Shown: positions 44,690 through 64,000 of the stretch, one piece after another
How positions within the stretch are numbered: position 1 is the stretch's first letter
Layout of the letters: every line of letters begins with the position of its first letter
Source of the DNA: Leucoraja ocellata
Lineage: Eukaryota
Direction: 5' to 3'
Length of the DNA: 64,000 nucleotides
NCBI GenBank assembly: GCA_036785375.1
Contig: JAWMAR010000611.1
Coordinates: forward strand, 124,001-188,000
The notes under the pieces: model-generated
What the model saw: the letters and a program-made list of their open reading frames with translations, nothing else
What the model was told of the DNA's origin: nothing
Database searches by the model: none
Position numbers and translations under genes: made by a program

Positions 44690-45654
44690 AGATGCTCCTG
44701 AACACATCATCAGTGATGTAACCTGGGGTCATTGGGTGTTTCGGGTCTTTCAACATCAGACACCCTCACCCAGGCGACCCAGCCATGGTTGATCAGACCA
44801 CGACTTGTGTTCAGGTGGTATTCGCTCCTCCCTATGGACCTTCTCTCCTGATCCAGCCATCTCGAGGCCTTCTCCGCTGCCTCAGTGGTGTTCTTGATGG
44901 CCCTTCTCCTCGCCACTCCGTTGATGCCCATTGCACTCAAGGCTCTGTAGAGCGATTGCCCTGCAAAACCTCTGCAGCCAACCTGGATGGACATACACCT
45001 TGCCTTCCAGCCCTGCTTGCGGCAGTCTATGACCAGCTCTTCATACTTGCCCATCTTCCTCTCGTGGGCCTCCTCCAGATGGTCCTCCCACGGCACTGTC
45101 AGTTCCAACAAGACAATGTTTTTGGTCGTCACTGAGACCAGGAGGATATCTGGCCTCAGGCAATGTGCCGTGGGAACCTCAGCTGTTTCACCAGGTCTAC
45201 GGAAAGCTGCCAGTCCTGCGCAGTCGCCAGGATTCCTGACGGATTCCTGGCTGCTGTGGTTCTTGGCAGCTGCACTCCGGCCTTCACGAAGGTGATCATC
45301 TGGGTGGTGGGCCATTCTCGTCTACAGCTGCTGATTCCCATGCTGATGGCTTCTGCAAATGGTTTAAGAACCTGGTCATGATGCCATGTGTACCGGCCCT
45401 GCCCAAGAGCCTTTGGGCAACAGCTCAGGATGTGTTCCAACGTCCCCTTGCCTGAGCATTGCGGGCAATCTGGAGATTCCGCTTTGCCCCAGATGAAGAG
45501 GTTCGATGGGCTGGGCAGGACATCATACACTGCCTGGACCAGGAACTTGATGCGCTGTGGTTCAGCCTGCCAGAGCTCAGTCCATGTGACTTTTCGGTCC
45601 ATGGCCTGCTCCCACCTTGTCCAGGCTCCTTGCTGCCTCAATCCAACTGACATC
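44690..45654 (-). mobile_element. HERO/NeSL-type REL non-LTR retrotransposon, 3' part (CCHC finger, PD-(D/E)xK endonuclease, structured 3' UTR)
   Basis: QQGAWTRWE, CPQC...TLEHILSCC, RYTWHHDQVL, LRPDILLVS..KNIVLLELTVPWE..HERK..KY. Confidence 0.88.
44697..44815 (-). ncRNA. Candidate non-circularly permuted hammerhead ribozyme in the HERO-like 3' UTR
   Basis: CUGAUGA, GAAA and GUC core; helices I (UGAUGU/ACAUCA), II (GGGUC/GACCC) and III (GGGUG/CACCC); three auxiliary helices. See findings. Confidence 0.6.
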
Positions 45655-46803
45655 ATTCAGGACCCTGCTGTTATATCCAATGCTTTCAACCAGCACTTCT
45701 CCACTGTATGTAGCTCTACTGTATTTGACTCATCTATTTTACTTCGGAGTCACGTGAGTGACTTCGTGAAGAACCCCGCTTCCACGCATGCGTGACACAC
45801 AGAGGGGAACGGCGTTCCCCAAGCGGGAGATTTGAAAGTCGGGAACAGCAGGTAAGCGACTCTGCGTTCCTTTTTTCTACTTACTTTTAGGTGGCTGCGG
45901 AAAGCCGGCGGGGAGACCCATGGAGGGCGAGCAGCCAGCAGCAGCAACAGCACGAGTTTTCCCTGGGGGAGGGAACAACCTGAGCCCGACTTTGCTCCCG
46001 CACCGGCAAAATTCACCTCTCGGCCGGGCGGGAAGCAAAGTAAAAAAGGTCCCTATGCCAGTCTCAAATGAGACTGGCTTTGGAACAGTCGGTAGCAGCC
46101 AGCACAGAGGCTGCGGGACAGACAGCTCGGACCAGCGGTACCGGGGCTCGAAACGCTCAGCGAGTGCAGCGGCACTTATGGAGTCGGAACGGGACGTTCG
46201 GGCTGAAAACCTTGTTCACAAGGTAAGGGCCAGGGGATCCATAGGAACAGCCGGGGTTACCGGCTGCGGAACTGCCGCGAAGGACCAGGCCCGTGAACAC
46301 CGGGGTCGGTCCAAGCGGCTCGAACCCGACACAGGGAACGACGGTCACCGGCGGGAGAAGGAAAGTCGGGAACAGCAGGTAAGAGACCCTGCGTTTTCCT
46401 TCAACTTACCTTTCTAGGTGCAGACATGGACCAGGTCCATGTAAGGTGCAGAAGGCCGGCGGGAGAACCGCGGAGGAGCGGCAGCAGCAGCAGCGGCAGC
46501 GGCAGCAGCAGTGGCAGCCGGCAGCTGCAGGAGCACTAACAGCTGCAGGAGCACAGGCAGCTGCAGGAGCACAGGCAGCAGCAGTGGCAGCTGGCACTTC
46601 GTGAGGAGCTGGCAACGGCAGGAGCAGCATGGGCACATCGGTTCCCGGAGAGGGAAAAACACCTGTGCCCAACTTCGCTCCAGCATGGTGAGAAAGTTCA
46701 TTTCTCGGCAGCAAAGGACTTTGCAGTTGACTGGCTGCAATCTACTACAAGGGACCAGTATTTGAGTACCAGGGTCGGTCCCAGCGGGGTTTTAGTTACA
46801 ATA

Positions 46804-46898
46804 ATCGCTTCTCGGTTTTTTTGGCTAAGATCAAGTGTAGTATCTGTTCTTATCAGTTTAATATCTGATACACCCCTTATCTAGGGACTATATATATT
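46804..46898 (+). pseudogene. RNU2: U2 snRNA 5' domain (about nt 1-95), no Sm site
   Basis: ATCGCTTCTCGG..TTTTGGCTAAGATCAAGTGTAGTATCTGTTCTTATCAGTTTAATATCTGATAC followed by stem IIb; matches conserved U2. Confidence 0.92.
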
Positions 46899-46910
46899 AT
46901 ATAAAAACTA

Positions 46911-46968
46911 TAGTAGCTGTTATCATCAGTTTTAATGTCTTGTATGTCCCTTATCTAAGGACCATATA
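46911..46968 (+). pseudogene. Second, diverged U2 fragment (about nt 34-92)
   Basis: TAGTAGCTGTTATCATCAGTTTTAATGTCTTGTATGTCCCTTATCTAAGGACCATATA aligns to U2 from the branch-point region through stem IIb. Confidence 0.7.
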
Positions 46969-49900
46969 AGTAGGAGTGCCCAGAATTGAGGGCATTAGAG
47001 TGGGGTTGACCGGCTGCAACAACCATAAGGGACCAGTACCGTCAGTACGGGGGTGGGTCCCAGGGGTCTTAGATAAAGGAGCAGCCAGGAGTGCTGAGAG
47101 CGTTGAAGCCAGGTTAAAGGAATAGATGGAAGCAGCTGTGCCAGTTATCCTCCACACCGGCCATATCCACTTCACGGAAGGAAGGACAAAACTGGAGAAG
47201 GAGGACCATGGAACAGCGGGCAGCCAGCAGCAGCCAGTGGCACTTGGATCAACCGTAGTGGGATCAGCTGTGCCCGATGTCGGCCCCGCACCGGCCAGAT
47301 CCATGTGACCGAGCGGTAGGCTAGACACAAATCAAACAAGGTAGTGGACTCAGAAGGGTCCGACTTTGCATAAAACCGCCGGCAACCAGCGCCCGAGAGG
47401 GCTGGAGCGGGAAGAAGCGGTGTATGGAGCCTTGCTCCAACATGATAAACCCACAGCAGTACCTCTTTGAGGGCTGCACAATGCTTCTACCCCATCAGAG
47501 GGGAGCACTGTGGGTCAGTTCTGGGTTGACTTGCAAGAGGGGTCCGCAGAACAAAAGACAAGTGGGCAGCAGTTAAGCCCCACAGGGGTACCCCGTGTGG
47601 GACCCTAGAGATCTCTAACTCTATAAAAAAGAGTAGGCAGGACCCTGATGGGCCAGAGCCTGGTAATACAGCGTCCCATGATCCTAACACAGCAGGGACT
47701 CTGCTGGACATGGTGGCCGATTACTTTAGCCAAGTCAAACATGGGTAGACTTGGATCCAGGATGGCAATAGTATTACTATATGTCTGGCCACATACGCCA
47801 ACAAGAAAAATTTACAAACACTGGCCAGACATCTGCCACCTGGCAACGGTGAGGCATTACAGGTGCCCAGTGTAATCCAATGCATTTGGCAGCATATGGA
47901 CGAACATCAGGAACCAGGACCTCAAGATCCAGAGAACCTTCAAGGGATTGACGGAAGGCATCATAGCATACACCAGCACCCTGGACTAAACGTAGGTAAC
48001 CAAAGACCATCAAGACGCACTAGATCTGTTTAATAATATGCAATATGACCTGAACTACACGTGGATGGCGGCCATTCAGCCAGCACTAGGACCCCAAAAA
48101 TGCTACCATTTGCAAATAAAGAACCGTGTGTGGACTAAGCTAAGACACTGGGGCTCATCAAGGCCAGCGCAAGGGCCTATTTTGGAGCATGATACCAGCC
48201 ACAGGCAAGGCCATAAAAAATGTGGCTCATACCAGTAGCAGTGTCAGAAATCGATATAACCTGCAGGATCCGTTTTAGGGTATGGCCAGGGCGGCCACCC
48301 TGGAAGATGCGGAAGCCTCAACCTCCCACACAACCCCGAACAAGAAATATCAAACCAGAACCTTATTTTCAAAAAACCAAGGAAATAACAAAACCACCGG
48401 TAACCATGGAGGTAGGTGGGTGGGGTTTCTTCTGTTAAATAGGGACCTACGGGTGTAGGGGAGGTTGCAACACTATAGTTATGTATGGTATATAATCACT
48501 ACAGATTCATATAATCTCAGCAGTATTCAGGGTTATCTGATAGGGTTTTTCTCATCCCATTAACCACAGTACATCATACACCAGAAGGGCATTTTGTCCT
48601 TACATAAACCAAACTATCTAAAACCCACATGGTGCTACAAGAATTGTACACAAAAGATGGGATTGAACATATTTATTAAAAATAAAATAGAGTAGGGTTG
48701 CAGGATTATCATTGATTTTAACCCTAAACACATTTGTTCTAGATATTCATTTTAGGATGGATGCTCTTATTATTCATAAAGACTTGGTGTCAGTTGCGGG
48801 TTTCTATATGGCAGGCATTGACTCAATAGAGGAACTCTGGCAATATAGAGCTTACAAAAGGGGCAATCATTAGCCCCAATATTATGTATTAAAATTCGTA
48901 AACCAGCTTGGCATTGTTATGTAAATAAGCCATAGGGTGAGGTTTTCCCCCGTTCGGACCCATCATTGGGGTACTAGGGAAAATTCAACCACACTCGGCA
49001 TCTGGAATTTTCAGAGTACCCGACTGACCTTCTCAATCATGGTATTTCAGTCTTACAGGGGATGGTGTTAGAACCATGTTCCCTATGAACATTGCCAAAA
49101 AATTATTCATTTATCCAGTGACTGGAGGCAGTCATCCATGCCATAACACTTTGGATTTATTGATTTGTAGAGTCTAACAGACCCACTACACTGTCAGACA
49201 GGACGATGAATCTCATCTCATCTGCACTAAGACTGTCAACACGGGGGCATATACTGCTTGGACAACAATCTCGACCAAAAGGCCAAGAACATTCTGGCCG
49301 TATTGGAATTTTAACAAGCCTCCATTAGGATAATCGATGGAGCTACAGTGCCATCAATAGTGCCACAAGTGCACTCTCCAATTACCTATCACAAGGATCG
49401 GAACGGCACGCGGTGGGAACGCACCCCTGGTAAACTAACCAGGTACTCCGAAATCTGGGACACGGGTGTCGTTTTCTCAACATGCTGAGGAGCTTGTAGC
49501 TCATAACAGTGTTGTCACCTCAGTAACAGACCAGGAAGATGGTTATGCTCATGGTGTTATTTACCGCACAACAAGTCCAGCCATTAAGCAAACTGAGCCT
49601 GGACTCCCTGATCATCTCACCAAGAAACTGGTGTTGTCATACAGGATTTAATAAAAGAAAACAGATCGGGTTCCTCGGGTCTAGGGTTTGATTTTATGGT
49701 ACACCCATATGGCAAACGACTGTGTATAACAAGACACATCTAACAATACATAGCATATACTCAGAACATTTGAGGTCAGAGTATGGAGTTGTTTATCTCT
49801 TACAAGAAACTGCATGATAGGGTCACGACTCAAATTATTTCAAGGTGGCTCAAATAGGTCCTAAAAATGGCAGGAATAGACACTGATGTTTCAACTCTCA

Positions 49901-51768
49901 TTCCACCAGGACGGCAGCAACATCCGCAGCAATATTATACAGGTACCCACAGACCAAATCCTCAGAATGGCAGGAGGGTCATTTAAAAAAAGGGTTTTTC
50001 CACAGGTTGTATAATAAACCAGTTAATTTGGAGCCATCATTGTATTAAGAAAACATTTTAGGTTCAACAAAATATTTTGGCCGATAGGTTACAGGGTTAT
50101 GATTCTCAAATTTTAAAAAATGTTATATATTTTTTTTTTTCGTTATACCACACAACTCTTTGTATAATTGTGTTTTAAAACTACTAATGATGCTCTCTCC
50201 CAATACCCAAGGCAGTTGTGAAGCATGGACTCGTTCCACGGCATGAGGTCACAGAGCTTTGAAATCTTCACGAAGTCACTCACGTGACTCCGAAGTAAAA
50301 TAGTAAGATTAAACGAGAACTTACCAGTTTGAAGTTTGATCTGTATTTTATGAGGAGTTACGATGAGGGATTTCGTGCCCTCCGCTCCCACCCTCTTATG
50401 ATCATATCAAAAACTGGTATCTCTTTGATAATCTTACTATGTTAGATCATTATAGGTTTCTGTGACCTCACACCGCTGCTTTGAAGAATGACACGCATGC
50501 GTGGAAGCGGGGTTCTTCACGAAATCCCTCATCGTAACTCCTCATAAAATACAGATCAAACTTCAAACTGGTAAGTTCTCGTTTAATCTTACTATTATAT
50601 GTGACTTTCCAGCTACCTCTACATGTAGAAGCTCTTTTTCTTTTCAAAAAATAAAACCTGTTGACGTTCAACATGCTATTAATGAATTAAAGGATGATTG
50701 TGGAGCTGGTCCAGCTGGTATTGAGCCTAAATTAACTAAGATAGGAGCTAATATTCTAATGTACCCACTATGCGACCTGTTTAATTTGTCTTTCTCAACT
50801 TGTACCCTCCCTTCCGCATGGAAGTGTGCTAATGTTACTCCACTACATAAGGGAGGCGAACCACACGATATTAACAATTACCGCCCCATCTCAATTATCA
50901 ACTCGGTGGCTAAAATCCTTGAGAAACTAGTGTTCAACCAGCTTTCACATTATGTCTCAACTTTCAACATTCTATCTCCATGCCAGTCTGGGTTCAGACC
51001 TAATCACTCCACAACTACAGCTCTGTTAAAACTCACCAGCAATGTGTTCACTGCTTCTGAGGATGGTAACTCACCGGTGCCATCTTTCTTGATTTAACCA
51101 AGGCCTTTGATGTTGTTGACCACTATCTACTGCTTGATAAACTTTACTCTATTGGTCTTTCTCAAAACAATCTACTGTGGTTTAACTCGTACCTTCATAA
51201 CAGACGCCAATGTGTCACCTTTAATGGAAGTCAATCCAATTTCTTAATTGTTGAGAAGGGGGTCCCGCAAGGTTCGTCCTTGGGACCACTCCTTTTCTCT
51301 ATTTTCATAAACGACCTCCCTAATATCTGTTCTGATTGTCAAACACAACTATATGCCGATGATGCAGTGCTATATACATCTAGTACTAACAAATCAGACA
51401 TTGAAAGATCCCTTCAATTAGATCTTACTTCTGTTCAGAAATGGCTATTATTTAACAAATTAATTTTAAATAAAAATAAATCATGCAGTATGTTATTTGG
51501 TACCAGACAAGGCCTTGGTAATTCTGTAGATTTGACTATATCATTTATTGAAGGATCACCATTAGAACAAGTATTGAACTTCAAATATCTTGGTGTTTGG
51601 CTCGATCCAACGCTTTCATTTACGAAACATAGTGAGACGATTACTAAAAAACTCAGCTGTAATCTAGCTATTCTTTACCGCCATATAAATTGTTTCACCT
51701 TTCAGATGAGAAAAATAATTGTCTCTCAACTACTACTACCAACACTGGATTATGCTGATAATGTCTAA

Positions 51769-53535
51769 TAGTCCCAGCCACCTTCTGAGAAAGCTGCTGA
51801 CTTTCCTCTCCAATCTCTCTACGATGGATATTGGGACTTTGTAGACAAGCAGTGGCCAGAGTATCCTTGGCAGGAAACCATGCCGGTAAATCCATGCCTT
51901 GAACTTTCCGGGAAGCCCCGACCGGTCCACTGCTCTCAACCAACTCTCCAGCTCCTGACAGGTTGCCTGGACAGATGCTGTATCCTTCAGGCTGTTGTTA
52001 AACACCTTGCCAAGACTCTTCACTGGCCTTTTTGAGACAGTTGGGATTGGTGTCCCTTCGATGCTGAAGCGGAACCTGTCCATGACTTTGCCCTTCTTCA
52101 GCACCAGTCACCTTGATATTCCTGGCTTAAACCTCATCCTTGCCCATCCAATCAGCTTCTCCAACCCCTGCAGGATCCACCTGCCTCCTGGCACTGACTC
52201 AGTGGTGACAGTCAGGTCGTCCATGAAGGCTCTGATTGGTGGTTGGCGCATTCCTGACTTGGTCCGAGGGCCCCGGCACTCTGGCTCAGCAGACTTGACC
52301 ATCATGTTCATCGCCAAGGCAACAAGGATCACAGAGATGGTACAGCCTGTGATGATCCCAACCTCCAGTCTGTGCCACTGATGTTACTGACCCTAATGAG
52401 ACTCTCATGCTGTACTGGTTGTAATAGTCCAGGATGAGATCTGCCACTTGGCCCGCAGGGCACGTGATGCTTGGCCATGACTGTCTGGATCAGCTTGTGC
52501 GGGATGGAGCCGTAGGAGTTGGCCAGGTCAAGCCAGAGCACTGTCAGGTCTCCCTTGTTCTCCCTGGCTTCTCTGATGAGCTGGGTCACCACTCCCGTGT
52601 GCTCTAGACACCCCGGCACTCCAGACAAGCCTCCCTTTTGCACTGAGCTGTCGATGTAGCCATTGCTGAAGAGGAAGTTGGTCAGCCACCTCGCCACTAT
52701 GCTGAAGAAGCTCTTGCCTTCAACACTTAGCAAGGAGATGATTCTGAACTGATCGATCTTCTTGGAATCTTCTTCCTTTGGGATCCAGACTCCTTCAGCT
52801 AATCGCTACTGCTGCGCCACTTTTCCTCTCCTCCAGATGATTTTCAGGATCTTCCACAGCCGTTTCAGTAACAAGGGGCAGTTCTTGTAGACCCTGTAGG
52901 GAACTCTGCTCGGCCAGGGGCTGAGCCAGCTCTTGCTTTCTTCACAACGTCCTGGACCTCTTTCAGGAGTGGCTCCCTACTATCAAACTCCTTGATGGGT
53001 GGAGGTGGTTTTTATCAGGATGTTGCACTGGCCCAGCTCCTGCTGCCTGACGGGGTCACTGTAGGTCGTCTGGATGTGCCGGTCGATCTCCTCCTTAGAG
53101 CAAGCCAAACTCCCACTGCGCTTCTGCCCGAGTAGTTGTTTGGTGAAGCCGAAGGGGTTGGCTATGAAGGATGCTCCTCGCTTCCTGGCTCTTTCCTTCC
53201 GGCGTCTTCGGTGCCACTCAGCTCTACAGAGGGTCATCAGCTTCTTACTCAGGATAGTTCACAGCTCAGCCAAGGGGGGACGTTGCTCTTCACTGGCCTC
53301 TTTATTCTGCTTCTTGAGGGACTTCAGCTCCTGCTGGATCTTGTGGATCTTTGTTGCTCGTTGGTTCATGGTGAAAGGTGTTCTGGCCGGCTTCTTCTCC
53401 ACTGCTCCAAACCTTTCCACAGCTAGGCTGATGATGATTGTCGTCATCGCCCACAGCCTTCCGTCCACGTCTCCCTTCACAGTTGCTTCAAGCACCTTGT
53501 CGACCTCCTCGTCAAACTGATGCCAGACTGATCCT
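51769..53535 (-). mobile_element. HERO/NeSL-type element RT part, 5'-truncated
   Basis: FIANPFGF, VQKGG..GVPGCLEH, LWLDLANSYGSIPH, RAFMDDLTV, LPGKFKAWIY, RRWLGL. Confidence 0.88.
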
Positions 53536-55183
53536 GAACTGCCAAAAGAATAAAACTGGGAAGGCGGCTTAACCGTGGCTGAGGAGGGAAGACAATGATT
53601 GGGTTAAATCCAAAGTAGAGGCATATAAATTGGCCAGAAGAAGCGGCAAATCAGGGGGCTGGGAGAAATTTGGAACTCCAACAGAGGAGGACAAAGGGGT
53701 TAACTAAGAGGGGGAAGAGCATGAAAGAAAGCTTGCGGGGAATATAAAAACTGACTGTCAACATTTATTTAGGGATGTAAAAAGAAATAGATTAGCGAAT
53801 GCAGGTCCCCTACAGTCAATGACAGGTGAATATATAATGGGGAAAAAAATAAATCGCAGAGCAGTTAAATGAGTACTTCGATTCTGTCCTCACTAAGGAA
53901 GGCACAAACAATCTCCCAGAAATACTAGGGGACCGAGGATCTAGTGGGAGGGAGCATCTGAAGGGAATCCACATTAGTCAGAAAATGGTGTTAGGTAAAC
54001 TGTTGGGACTGAAGGCAGATAAATCCCCAGGGCCTGATGGTCTGCGTCCTAGACTCCTCAAGAAGGTGACCCTAGGATGTATTAGTGATCATTTTTCTTT
54101 GTTCTCTCGACTCTGGATTAGTTCCTGTGGACTGGAGAGTAGCCAATGAAACTCTACTTTTTAAGAAAGGAGGAGAGAGAATAAACGGGGAATTACAGAC
54201 CAGTTAGCCTTACATCGGTAGTGGGGAAGATGCTGGAGTCGAATATTAAAGATGTTATAGCAGCACATGTGGAAAGCAATGACGGGATCAGTCAAAGGCA
54301 GCATGGGGAAACCATGCTTTTCTAATATTTTAGAATTTTTTGAGGATGTAACAGATAGAATGGATAAGGGAGAGCCAGAGGATGTGTTGTATCTGGACTT
54401 ACAGAAAGACTTTGACAAGGTCCAGCAAAAGAGATTAGTGTGCAAAATTAGAGCACATGGTATTGGGGGTAGAGTATTGACATGGATAGAGAACTGGTTG
54501 GTGGACAGGAAGCAAAGAGTAGCAATTAACGGGTCGTTTTCAGAATGACAGGCAGTGACTAGTGGGGTGACGAAAGGCTCGGTGCTGGGACCCTGATTGT
54601 TCTCAATATATATCAATGATTTAGACGAGGGAATTAAATGTAACCTCTCTAAGTTTGCGGGTGATACAAAGCTAGATGGCAGTGTGGGATGCAAGGAAGA
54701 TGTTATGTGGCTACTGGGCTTATAGCATCTTGTACAGGTTGGGTGAGTGGGCAGAAGCATGGCAGATGCAGCATAATGTGGATAAATGTGAGGTTATCCA
54801 CTTTGGTGGCAAGAACAGGAAGGCAGATTATTTTCGGAATGGTGTCAGATTAGGAGAATGGGAGGTGCAATGAGACCCAGGTGTGCTTGTACATCAGTCA
54901 CTGAAAGTAAGCATGCAGGCACAGCAGGCAGTAAAGAAAGCAAATGGCATGTTGGCCTTCATAGCGAAAGGATTTGCGTTTAGGAGCAAGGAGGTCCAAC
55001 TGCAGTTGTACAGAGCCCTGGTGAGACCGCACCTGGAGTATTGTGTGCAATTTTCGTCTCCTAATTTGAGGAATGACATTCATGCCATTGAGGGAGTGCA
55101 GCGTAGGTTCACCAGGTTAAATCCCGAGATGGCGGAACTGACGTATGATGAAAGAAGGGGTCAACTGGACTTGTATTCACTGT

Positions 55184-61540: not shown

Positions 61541-62946
61541 TACATGATAAATGGTGTTGTAGGGAACAACGACAAGCCACGAGGAACACACATTAACGCC
61601 TTAATTTCCTTCCCAATTTATGATGACCGTAACATATATCATTCTATTCTTATGATCCTGACAATGTATTATATTATATAAGACATTTTTTGGTACATGA
61701 GCAAGTTATTAGAAAGTCTTCTTTTATAGATATAGACTTAGCACAATAACAAAGGTAGACAAAAATGCTCTAGCTCCATAAGAATTTCTCCAGCATTTTT
61801 GTCTACCTTCGATTTTCCAGCATCTGCAGTTCATATTAAACAATAATAAGGGTATCAATTTTTACACTGCTGTACATTTTTGGTTTTGTTCTTGTCGTAA
61901 GGCAGGCATGGTATTGTAAGCTCTTCTACATTTAAGTTAAATCAAGTCAAATCAAGCCAAGAGAGTTTATTGTCATGTGTCCCAGATAGGACAATGAAAT
62001 TCTTGCTTTGCTTCAGCACAACAAAACATAGGAGGCATGAATACAGACTTTATTCAGTAGGCATAAATTGACCTACTAGAGGAAAAATGCATCTTCAATA
62101 TACATGTGTCTCCCCATCCCTGAAAACAATTGCATTTAAGTGACATATCATCCATTCTGCAGTTATGTAGTTATAATCAGATTTGTTCTTATGTTAATTC
62201 TATATGATATGTTACTGTAATTTCAGATGTTGACAGTGGGTCCAGAATACTCGTTGATAAGATCTCCTACAGCGAACTATGGAGTACTTGTCAAAGAACT
62301 GCCGTCTTTGTTCTGAACACTCTGTATATCTCACACATAAAACAATAAATTATGTAAATCTTACCATAAATGACAGAAATAAAAAGTGTTATCCTTGTTT
62401 ATGAATTTTGTTGTAGAATTATTTAAAATTGAGTGGCTTGATGCAATATACTGCTAACCCACAAATGTTTAGTTATGAGATATTCACATTTAAAAACTCA
62501 CTCAGAGTTCGGGTGGCTGCCGGGCCCGGACAGTGGAACCGCAGCTAGACCCGGGGCTCGCAGGTGACCTGGGAACCGCAGCTAGACCCGGGGCTCGCAG
62601 GTGACCTGGGAACTACAGCTAGTCCAGGAGGGTCCTGGCCCCTGTGCAAAAAAGGCTGCGGACCCCTGGACTAAACCAAACCCTCGATCCTGGCCCGCCA
62701 TCCTTTTTTCAAAATTTAGCAACTCAAATGGTGGTGCGTCTTCATTGCCGGGAAATAGGGTAACTCATTTCCCTCAAATATATGTAAATTTCCCTCAAAT
62801 ATATGTTAAATTAAAAACTAAACTATGGTAGCAATGCACAGTTTTCATGTCTAATGCTCGTACTTCTGCATCAATGTAGGTATGTATACACTATATTACT
62901 TTACTAATATAGAATGAAAAAATATCTTGGCATGTGTTCATTTATA

Positions 62947-64000
62947 TTTTACTTCGGAGTCACGTGAGTGACTACATGAAGAACCCACCAGTACGCATGC
63001 GTGTCATTATTGCTACACGCATTATAACGAGTCATTGGGGGAAGGAAGGACGTTCCTCCCAAACGGCAGGTTTGGAACCTGCAACAGTAGGTAAGAGAAC
63101 TTTGTTTCTTTTTTACTTACCTTTGTTTACAGGAAGGCTGTGGAAAGCTGGCGTGGGAGAGCTGCTATATAGGAGCAGGCAGCCAGCAACGGCCGGTGGC
63201 ACGACAATCTCCCTTGGCGGGAGCCGGTGCGACTTCAGCTCCAGCAAGGGTATGGGTCGCCGACAACCGATGGAGCACTCAGGAGCCGTCAATCTGACGA
63301 TTCGGAAAAGCCCAAGGACCTACAGGGTAAGGAGCGCTACATGGGTCCGTGGGGCTGAGAAATAAAAATAGCAGCGAGCGGTCGGTGCCCGTGAGCACCG
63401 GGTACGCGTTGGAGCTGCTGGGCCTGCGTCGCGAGCGGCCAGTTCCCCGTGAGGACTGCACCGCATTGGAGCACAGCAGGCCCAAGGGGGAAGCAGCGGC
63501 ACAGTGGGGAGCACTGCACCGCGTTAAAACCACCATACCTGCGGTTGTGAGCGGCCAGCTCCCCGAGAGGACTGAACCGCGTTGGAGCACAGCAGGCCCA
63601 CGTGGGAAAGGAGCGGCACAGTGCAGAGCACTGCACCGCGTTAAAACCACCATACCTGCGGTTGCGAGCGGCCAGCTCCCCGAGAGGACTGAACCGCGTT
63701 GGAGCACTGCAGGCTAACGGTACTACAGGCGGCTCAGTGCCGTGAGCACTGCACGGCGCTTTGGAGCACTGCAGGCCAACGGCACTACAGGGGACTCAGT
63801 GCCCGTGAGCACTGCAATGCGTTGACACTGCGGGACCTGCACCTGCGAGAACATACCGCGTTTGCAGCGATGCAGGTCCAAAAAAGAAGAACAAATCCTC
63901 GAGTGGGTAACTCCCATAGCAGCACCTTATACAGGGCTGTATCTCACTTCTACTATTACAGGTAAGTGCTGGAGGAAAAGACAGACTTAGGGAGAAGGAT
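62947..64000 (+). mobile_element. Second DIRS1-like element, 5' part, runs off the window
   Basis: Starts TTTTACTTCGGAGTCACGTGAGTGACT like the element at 45737; about 121-bp internal tandem repeats at 63440-63710. Confidence 0.85.

Follow-up and report, generated by a model that had tools for sequence, protein, structure and literature searches.

Some retroelements are known to insert into U2 genes, Utopia among them. Keno, of the Tx1 clade, does so as well (PMC4494074). In retroviruses, MLV packages pre-U2 from the cytoplasm, U2 precursors being a known passenger of Gag particles (PMC4378196), and the reverse transcriptase patches host RNA into its products at microhomologies (PMC4997597). 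U6/LINE chimeras arise via template switching that joins the snRNA in sense to the retroelement. They involve one switch and almost only U6; these non-LTR products are dead on arrival, have the snRNA as their 5' part and show target-site duplications (PMC4476161). In crocodilian SINEU, likely mobilised by Tx1 non-LTR elements, the snRNA forms a 5' head and the element carries a poly(A) tail (PMC4494074). TRIMp3 elements (Cassandra, Helenus, Ajax) hold a 5S or tRNA piece in the LTR, with the Pol III promoter boxes kept (PMC10886601). Our literature search, which covered listings and the starts of abstracts but did not extend to Repbase, Dfam, supplements or subscription journals, returned no prior report of snRNA cargo in DIRS. 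In the accessible text of a paper on DIRS1-like elements such cargo is not mentioned and the word "snRNA" has 0 occurrences (PMC3266345), and neither "snRNA" nor "DIRS" occurs in that of the TRIMp3 paper (PMC10886601).

Here we describe U2 sequence inside a DIRS element of Leucoraja ocellata. The window is the whole stretch of DNA analysed, 64,000 nucleotides of contig JAWMAR010000611.1 (positions 124,001 to 188,000, forward strand), and its relevant features are as follows.

45736..50595, + strand: non-autonomous DIRS1-like element, family A (4.86 kb), within a LINE reverse-transcriptase fragment
45736..45797, + strand: left inverted terminal repeat (87.5% inverse match to 50489-50551)
46726..46798, + strand: R1, upstream duplication copy, likely born with the first U2 capture (~75-80% like R2)
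46804..46902, + strand: U2a, U2 snRNA nt 1-96, likely the younger capture (90/96 identical to host U2, 3 inserted nt)
46906..46968, + strand: U2b, U2 nt 29-90, likely the decayed remainder of an older capture (52/62 identical to host U2)
46969..47075, + strand: spacer and R2, downstream duplication copy (R2 at 47005-47075)
47800..48094, + strand: gag (ORF1) remnant (tblastn, residues 241-339 of the intact L187 ORF1, 34-36%)
48459..49171, + strand: pol (ORF2) remnant (matches limited to residues 71-170 and 616-692)
49176..50072, + strand: broken tyrosine recombinase (ORF3) remnant (tblastn, residues 16-337, 29%)
50265..50595, + strand: internal complementary region and right inverted terminal repeat (self-comparison)
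62945..64000, + strand: second DIRS, family B, 5' part (full element L050:446-6041)

The host element was called a DIRS in a first-pass annotation of the window, and its inverted ends and internal complementary region bear this out. In self-comparison, the first 39 nt of the left end matched 50265-50303 inversely at 100%, placing the complementary region near the 3' end. All 19 fetched full copies of family A aligned end to end, one of them with a 1.7-kb internal deletion. Both ends were common to all 19, the flanking DNA was unrelated from copy to copy, and no target-site duplication was found at any of them. Copies start with NTT, namely ATT in 17/19 and GTT in 2/19. The coding remnants stand in DIRS order (gag, pol, tyrosine recombinase) and are all broken, the pol remnant being without the reverse-transcriptase core and RNase H, and no ORF longer than 200 aa was found in any of 20 copies. 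Relatives with the same ends have intact coding regions recognised by Pfam as RVT_1 and Phage_integrase, the latter at E 1.3e-6 for the intact L187 recombinase. Family A is a non-autonomous DIRS1-like member. With the elements described (PMC3266345) it shares ATT ends without target-site duplication, inverted terminal repeats with an internal complementary region, and the gag / RT-RH-MT / YR layout; it is without reverse-transcriptase core or intact ORF, and it carries snRNA cargo, of which that description makes no mention.

The sole Rfam match in the window was U2 (RF00004, 46804-46912, 94.2 bits, E 1.5e-17). Identities were calculated against the U2 gene of the same genome (L051), where host U2 lies in arrays. 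U2 begins 1069 nt into the element, at nt 1 of the snRNA, and the branch-point recognition hexamer sits at 46837-46842, as first reported. The description of this copy as near-perfect needs qualifying, U2a being 94% identical to host U2 in the window's subfamily; the full 96/96 was seen in a sister subfamily, A3, at 6/20 loci. U2a does end before the Sm site, at nt 96, but this is not a general property of U2 captures, since 4/10 of them run past that site, to nt 174-186. Likewise, a short A-run just after U2a qualifies the remark that no poly(A) tail is visible. The second, more diverged copy next to the first proved to be U2b. A decayed direct repeat, R1/R2, brackets the cassette. In a sister lineage, A', a ~110-nt duplication abuts both ends of a single U2 1-90 and its two copies are identical at 99/106 aligned positions. 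U2b stops at nt 90, and the spacer after it is the one that also follows this single U2 1-90. Short tandem expansions arise readily in the element, at 46489-46608.

The U2 pieces are cargo of family A, present in hundreds of copies, rather than a one-off pseudogene. The exact U2 junction 21-mers gave 272 matches in the genome and R1 motifs numbered 541. Both U2 pieces were still held by 20/20 R1 loci that lack the exact junction, and the 19/19 full copies share both ends in unrelated flanks; a post-integration insertion confined to this locus, the case in which other members would lack both pieces, is contradicted by these loci. One copy (L183) lacks the whole cassette, and U2 nt 1-24 are deleted from several others. 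Following the second DIRS beyond the window end, as the first-pass annotation had proposed, also revealed U2, at a different site of the element: family B, for which at least 40 copies match at 96-100% along 501 nt, has its own U2 nt 7-95 within the reverse-transcriptase remnant, ~1.1 kb past the window end (L050:2591-2682, 89% identical to host U2).

Repeated capture, already suspected from the two copies in the window, was observed genome-wide. At least 12 separate snRNA captures were found in DIRS elements (10 of U2, one of U1, one of U6), all 12 in sense orientation (P 0.0005) and 11 of them starting at snRNA +1. The 10:1:1 ratio is not a rate, because the search for U2 went much further than those for U1 and U6. 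Exact matches in the genome (1188 for U2, 66 for U1, 36 for U6) and Rfam scans at the gathering threshold, in which 40 stretches gave 0 hits, had suggested specificity for U2. We rejected this, as a decayed U1 1-127 was present in 4/34 DIRS elements sampled by their ends and U6 1-97 in one other. At E 0.05, no further Rfam family was found in 21 loci, except for one weak MEG8 match. U2 itself was found in 0/34 end-sampled elements. All 29 loci picked by a U2 25-mer for their lack of R1 lay within DIRS-type elements, as did 37/40 loci found by U2 stem IIb; the other three, the non-DIRS loci among the 69 examined, begin at U2 nt 38-41. Of the dispersed near-full-length U2 matches in the Rfam list, the two that were fetched both lie within DIRS and show 100% identity with host U2; DIRS make up only ~2-3% of the genome. 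Stems IIa and IIb were present in all 10 U2 captures, a partly circular result given that loci were found via motifs from those stems. The 3' ends cluster either just 3' of stem IIb (nt 90-96, six events) or at nt 174-186 (four events).

These gains of U2 were independent across DIRS lineages, because capture sites differ between lineages (from nt 61 to 3.2 kb) and carriers, about 7 of some 25 lineages seen, are interleaved with U2-free elements on a tree of the recombinase region (46 rows), where the U2 label requires 7-8 changes. Lineages C and F carry U2 at nearly the same site, and we considered one shared old capture; this was rejected, each being nearer to U2-free elements than to the other. 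In one U2-bearing element (L292), which matches the intact family L187 at 98.3% identity, U2 takes the place of 71 element nt.

We examined the junctions of these captures. An AT microhomology was present at the U2 5' junction in 5/5 captures for which a U2-free relative could be aligned clearly (D, F, G, H and I), as compared with a background AT frequency of 6-8%. Outside this clean set, junctions were less clear in B and C and ambiguous in A', and E had no U2-free relative in the set. Homology at the U6 junction was at most 1 nt. Most captures replaced element sequence (~130 nt in D, ~30 nt in G, 71 nt in H), none showed short target-site duplications, and several had short A-rich 3' junctions. 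The two freshest captures re-enter the element at nt 61-62, that is, at the edge of the left terminal repeat.

We consider it probable that host U2 came to lie in this coding-dead DIRS family by template switching onto a likely co-packaged snRNA, followed by neutral amplification; co-packaging and switching are both read from the DNA junctions alone. DIRS reverse transcriptase, likely supplied with the other enzymes by intact relatives, would switch from element RNA onto U2 RNA, copy it to its 5' end and switch back to element RNA, and the patched elements would then have been amplified as passengers. The substrate was presumably U2 trimmed at its 3' end, in many cases bearing a short A tail, because U2 ends cluster at the two positions given above. 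At the window locus, a first capture of U2 1-90 would have re-entered the element downstream and so duplicated ~110 nt (R1/R2). After ~10% divergence, a second capture, of U2 1-96, would have abandoned its template within the old U2 copy and returned, guided by homology, at that copy's 5' end, yielding U2a then U2b. U2a and U2b are likely two captures of different age, as the first-pass annotation had held, and of the three roles that it offered, that linked to template switching is the one that fits the evidence. LINE insertions also show target deletions and microhomology, which counts against ascribing such junctions to DIRS template switching. As a separate observation, about seven U2-bearing lineages out of some 25 are many for a purely neutral accident, which sits uneasily with the passenger part of this reading. 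A bolder proposal, which we regard as unlikely, is that DIRS RNPs selectively load U2, that switching onto it routinely accompanies DIRS reverse transcription or even assists it, that re-entry at nt 61-62 marks a strand-transfer point or the RNA 5' end, and that U2-bearing non-autonomous lineages gain a replication advantage.

Two other candidates were rejected. For recruitment of U2 through pairing with the DIRS termini, duplex z values ran from +0.6 to -1.7 and the longest helix was 12 bp, within shuffles; in the 9 tests, a single value, for U1, went as far as z -2.1. A captured host promoter was also discarded: comparing family A with 8 host U2 loci outside the RNA returned one 28-nt match (E 0.009).

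We then asked whether the cargo is conserved. Over 40 copies, U2a had 22 changes versus 18.5 expected and U2b 18 versus 12.1, while the terminal region (50265..50595), our positive control, had 41 versus 68.8. Neither U2a nor any of its three sub-parts showed excess conservation, in a test with little power for mild constraint. The U2 pieces change as fast as the dead body of the element, while constraint is seen in the terminal repeats. Family B has mutations in the branch-point motif, family E has lost it by deletion and family A shows no constraint on it, and we rejected a splicing decoy acting through it. The suggestion that U2 was kept for a function, such as splicing decoy or antisense regulator, is not supported, given these losses, the lack of excess conservation, the 0/34 end-sampled elements with U2 and the capture of U1 and U6 as well.

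A looser form of usefulness is that U2 benefits the non-autonomous RNA (stability, export, packaging, silencing escape, control of its own splicing), favouring carriers even if its sequence is loosely constrained. Coding-dead lineages did gain U2 repeatedly, family A added a second U2 onto a decayed first, all U2 captures keep stems IIa and IIb (subject to the circularity above), and high amplification is limited to U2. In A3, moreover, U2a is unchanged from host U2 while U2b differs from it at 6 of 57 nt (Fisher P 0.002), but two captures of different age predict this contrast too. We nevertheless hold a useful cargo to be rather improbable: besides the absence of excess conservation and the fate of the motif, nt 1-24 are gone from several family A copies and the entire cassette from L183, insertion sites are scattered, and the end-sampled DIRS free of U2 include several that also lack a long ORF. 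No benefit of the cargo emerged from the conservation and distribution comparisons, and the captures are likely passengers rather than useful parts.

LINE machinery could instead have made 3'-truncated U2 retrocopies, some of which hit genomic DIRS copies that later became source elements. L1-made 3'-truncated snRNA retrocopies, with short preferred truncation segments, are the commonest mammalian class (PMC4476161), several captures have A-rich 3' junctions, and A-tailed, free-standing retrocopies of U1 and U6 do occur in the genome. Set against this are the uniform sense orientation, the replacement of element nucleotides and lack of short target-site duplications, the start at +1 in 0/3 non-DIRS U2 loci, and the location of both fetched 100%-identical copies in DIRS despite their small share of the genome; we regard this origin as very unlikely. 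For the window locus only, a single capture split by internal tandem duplication, with U2a kept host-like by selection or gene conversion, would suit the adjoining pieces and the proneness to tandem expansions, but is scarcely credible given that host nt 91-96 are in U2a and absent from U2b and from the single copy of A', that several U2b changes are common to all A subfamilies whose common U2a ancestor equals host U2, and that U2a shows no constraint after the split.

To our knowledge, most of what is understood about the DIRS replication intermediate derives from a model. The insertions are a genomic record suggesting that DIRS reverse transcriptase encounters host snRNA and is capable of two template switches, like retroviral enzymes. 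They point to the RNAs present, the U2 forms (3'-trimmed) and the switch sites, which makes packaging a testable question. They also represent a further route by which snRNA sequence is amplified, to ~1000 dispersed copies, that will inflate U2 gene counts and could give U2 probes dispersed signals in this lineage.

Compared with known systems, Keno and Utopia show the reverse arrangement, as already pointed out in the first-pass annotation: there the element goes into U2, whereas here U2 went into the element, whose copies are flanked by unrelated DNA and not by U2 halves. We know of no internal promoter reported for U2. Like TRIMp3, family A is non-autonomous and carries a small-RNA gene piece, in TRIMp3 within retrovirus-like elements (PMC10886601); here the piece is internal and unconstrained. 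Crocodilian SINEU is likewise a mobile family with U1/U2-derived sequence and recurrent new snRNA pieces (PMC4494074), but U2 lies deep inside family A, which has DIRS termini at both ends and not a 3' poly(A). With U6/LINE chimeras and 3'-truncated snRNA retrocopies, the captures share sense orientation, a complete snRNA 5' end and a 3' end truncated in preferred segments (PMC4476161). They differ from the chimeras (Group IV) in that the snRNA is internal, with DIRS sequence on both sides, two switches would be needed, U2 predominates among those examined and the elements are still mobile. In retroviral patch recombination (MLV pre-U2; 7SL patched into a recombinant), as proposed here, a host small RNA lies mid-retroelement after two switches at microhomologies (PMC4378196, PMC4752605, PMC4997597), and in captures D, G and H host sequence indeed replaces element nucleotides, with short homology at junctions. 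Packaging by DIRS is deduced from DNA, whereas U2 precursors are known passengers of retroviral particles. Unlike the retroviral case, the carrier is a tyrosine-recombinase retrotransposon, and its products became fixed in the germ line, where they multiplied to hundreds of copies.

The 4.86-kb element at 45736-50595, a member of family A, bears inverted terminal repeats together with an internal complementary region, as do the DIRS1-like elements described in PMC3266345. Both ends were common to 19/19 further copies with unrelated flanks, and no ORF above 200 aa was present in any of the 20 copies. Using as queries the intact ORFs of a relative, L187 (RVT_1 and Phage_integrase), we found remnants of gag, pol and recombinase standing in DIRS order, while the RT core and RNase H were missing. 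Family A is a non-autonomous DIRS family. Its terminal 20-mer has 33,507 exact matches genome-wide, from which we estimate that DIRS of this type occupy ~2-3% of the genome. The DIRS expansion as a whole is very large: counting the carriers together with the 34 sampled elements gives at least 15 families, and some DIRS retain intact ORFs (L187, L190, L173). The element is itself nested in a LINE RT fragment, which splits a second non-LTR element; the latter bears a motif that we take to resemble a restriction-like endonuclease. A ~90-nt block, duplicated with 80% likeness, holds a 5' splice-site-like motif, a pyrimidine tract and an AG, and motifs of this kind recur towards the 5' end of the second DIRS. 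An Rfam search of the 64-kb window gave U2 as its sole match (46804-46912, 94.2 bits). Host U2 genes sit in arrays, judging from the best 48 matches.

Features of the window locus
44710-45656 and 51736-53603, minus strand: non-LTR element with zf-RVT
45660-45735 and 50596-51768, plus strand: LINE RT fragment (RVT_1)
45836-45893 and 46365-46420: duplicated block
46726-46798: direct repeat R1, on one side of the U2 pair
46804-46902: U2a, probably the younger piece, U2 nt 1-96, 90/96 against one host U2 gene
46906-46968: U2b, probably the older piece, U2 nt 29-90, 52/62 against one host U2 gene
47005-47075: direct repeat R2, on the other side of the pair

The first-pass annotation had proposed that the U2 pieces were family cargo. 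This proved correct: we counted 272 exact matches to the 5' U2 junction and 541 to the R1 motif, and 20 R1 loci without the exact junction, which represent other subfamilies with bodies 3-6% diverged, all carried both pieces. Other family members therefore do not lack both pieces, as they would have done after a single pseudogene insertion. In L183, a member identified through its ends, a deletion spans the whole U2 cassette, and another relative (L192) has a different sequence at that position.

Repeated capture, also suggested at first pass, was borne out by the second DIRS (family B, 62945 onward), which has little internal sequence in common with the first and holds its own U2 nt 7-95 within an RT remnant (at least 40 copies). 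Searching the genome with a U2 25-mer gave 1188 exact matches; among the first 100, 71 adjoin R1 or a junction match when compared by eye, and the remaining 29, once fetched, all lay inside DIRS-type elements (18 A, 1 A', a sister lineage of A, 6 C, 2 D, 2 E). Likewise, a stem-IIb 22-mer gave 1182 matches; 40 loci were fetched from the first 100, and 37 of these were within DIRS (18 A, 7 A', 8 B, 1 C, 2 F, 1 G), the other three starting at U2 nt 38, 38 and 41. Two dispersed near-full-length U2 matches from the Rfam list (H and I) were within DIRS as well. This gives ten U2 events, at distances between 61 nt and 3.2 kb from the element's left end.

U2 nucleotides held by each event
A': 1-90
U2a: 1-96
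B: 7-95
C: 1-93
D: 1-94
E: 1-90
F: 1-185
G: 1-186
H: 1-181, 100% identical to host U2
I: 1-174, 100% identical to host U2

On a recombinase-region tree of 46 rows, with E, H and I left out and L174 and L241 giving no usable stretch, the U2 label needs 7-8 changes. Family E (L142, L143) has DIRS ends, a U2 piece and internal tandem repeats; DIRS protein comparison gave no match in it. Captures C and F (L133, L241), from different lineages, sit at almost identical homologous positions by the pol start, possibly a switching hotspot. The two 100%-identical captures (L292:3990 and L293:3990) share a start at element nt 61-62, where the left terminal repeat has its edge; this position may mark an RNA 5' end or a strand-transfer point. 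Two non-DIRS U2 pieces (L238, L239) run from nt 38 to nt 181, a start presumably close to the Keno target position.

As a control, we took 40 stretches of one contig by terminal motif only, of which 34 gave a two-ended element. U2 was in 0/34, and a decayed U1 nt 1-127 in 4/34, all of one family. Exact 5' motifs matched 66 times for U1 and 36 for U6; 0/30 U1 loci fetched in this way and 1/8 U6 loci (nt 1-97, sense) were inside DIRS. The capture habit extends to U1 and U6, and the amplified one is U2, the ratio of events not being a rate because U2 was searched much more deeply. Thirteen of the 30 U1 loci belonged to a Tx1-like non-LTR family (L218, L226-L235, L294, L295), and several of them formed part of a tandem repeat unit. 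The family opens at its 5' end with U1 nt 1-52/56, after which comes a 16-nt match to U2 nt 37-52, an arrangement resembling SINEU or Keno heads; translations read by eye gave a zinc-knuckle ORF1, AP-endonuclease and RT.

All 12 snRNA captures are sense to the element (P 0.0005), and 11 start at snRNA +1, B being ambiguous in its first 6 nt. Among events with a cleanly aligned U2-free relative (D, F, G, H, I), the empty site reads AT exactly where U2 starts with AT in 5/5, against a background of 6-8%; AT is also found at the B 5' junction, and the junctions of C, A' and the U6 capture do not allow a clear reading. Element sequence was usually replaced: ~130 nt in D, ~30 nt in G (relative 96.7% identical) and 71 nt in H (relative from an intact family, 98.3% identical). 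In A', a ~110-nt duplication instead adjoins both U2 ends. A few A's occur at several 3' junctions. Such features are the marks expected from RT template switching, a step we infer from sequence: the RT would leave the element RNA, switch onto a 3'-trimmed snRNA, copy it to its 5' end and re-anneal to element RNA by 2 nt.

The A' lineage carries just one U2 1-90, flanked by repeats that are almost identical, and downstream of it comes the spacer that also follows U2b. In family A, divergence is similar for R1/R2 and for U2b, and the common ancestor of U2a is identical to host U2 and reaches nt 96. In a second capture, the RT may have quit its template within the older U2 sequence and resumed at the 5' end of that sequence, which would yield exactly U2a then U2b.

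That the captured U2 is useful cargo seems unlikely. By parsimony on an element-body tree of 40 copies (L146 and L183 left out; 0.208 changes per column), U2a had 22 changes where 18.5 were expected, and U2b 18 where 12.1 were. The right terminal region had 41 against 68.8 (P below 0.001), which shows that the test can pick up real constraint; a mild benefit, or one at the level of lineages, may still go unseen. No excess U2 conservation was seen across the 40 copies, even though many had been picked by exact U2 motifs, a choice that favours conserved copies. B has a mutated branch-point motif and E has lost it by deletion, and a search for special complementarity between U2 and the DIRS ends found none. 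That LINE machinery made the U2 insertions is less probable still. We consider capture by template switching, with neutral carriage and passive amplification, the probable course of events.

Collectively, recurrent and recent snRNA capture in DIRS is a real variant of a known process, apparently unpublished; a literature search, leaving aside Repbase and Dfam and papers behind subscription, turned up no account of DIRS with snRNA cargo. MLV shows a preference for packaging cytoplasmic pre-U2 (PMC4378196, PMC4752605), retroviral RT can patch host RNA, including 7SL, into its products at microhomologies (PMC4997597), and cytoplasmic P-bodies collect snRNAs without an Sm ring, truncated ones included (PMC7293007). 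Set against U6/LINE chimeras (PMC4476161), SINEU (PMC4494074) and TRIMp3 elements (PMC10886601), the DIRS captures differ from each in a defining feature.
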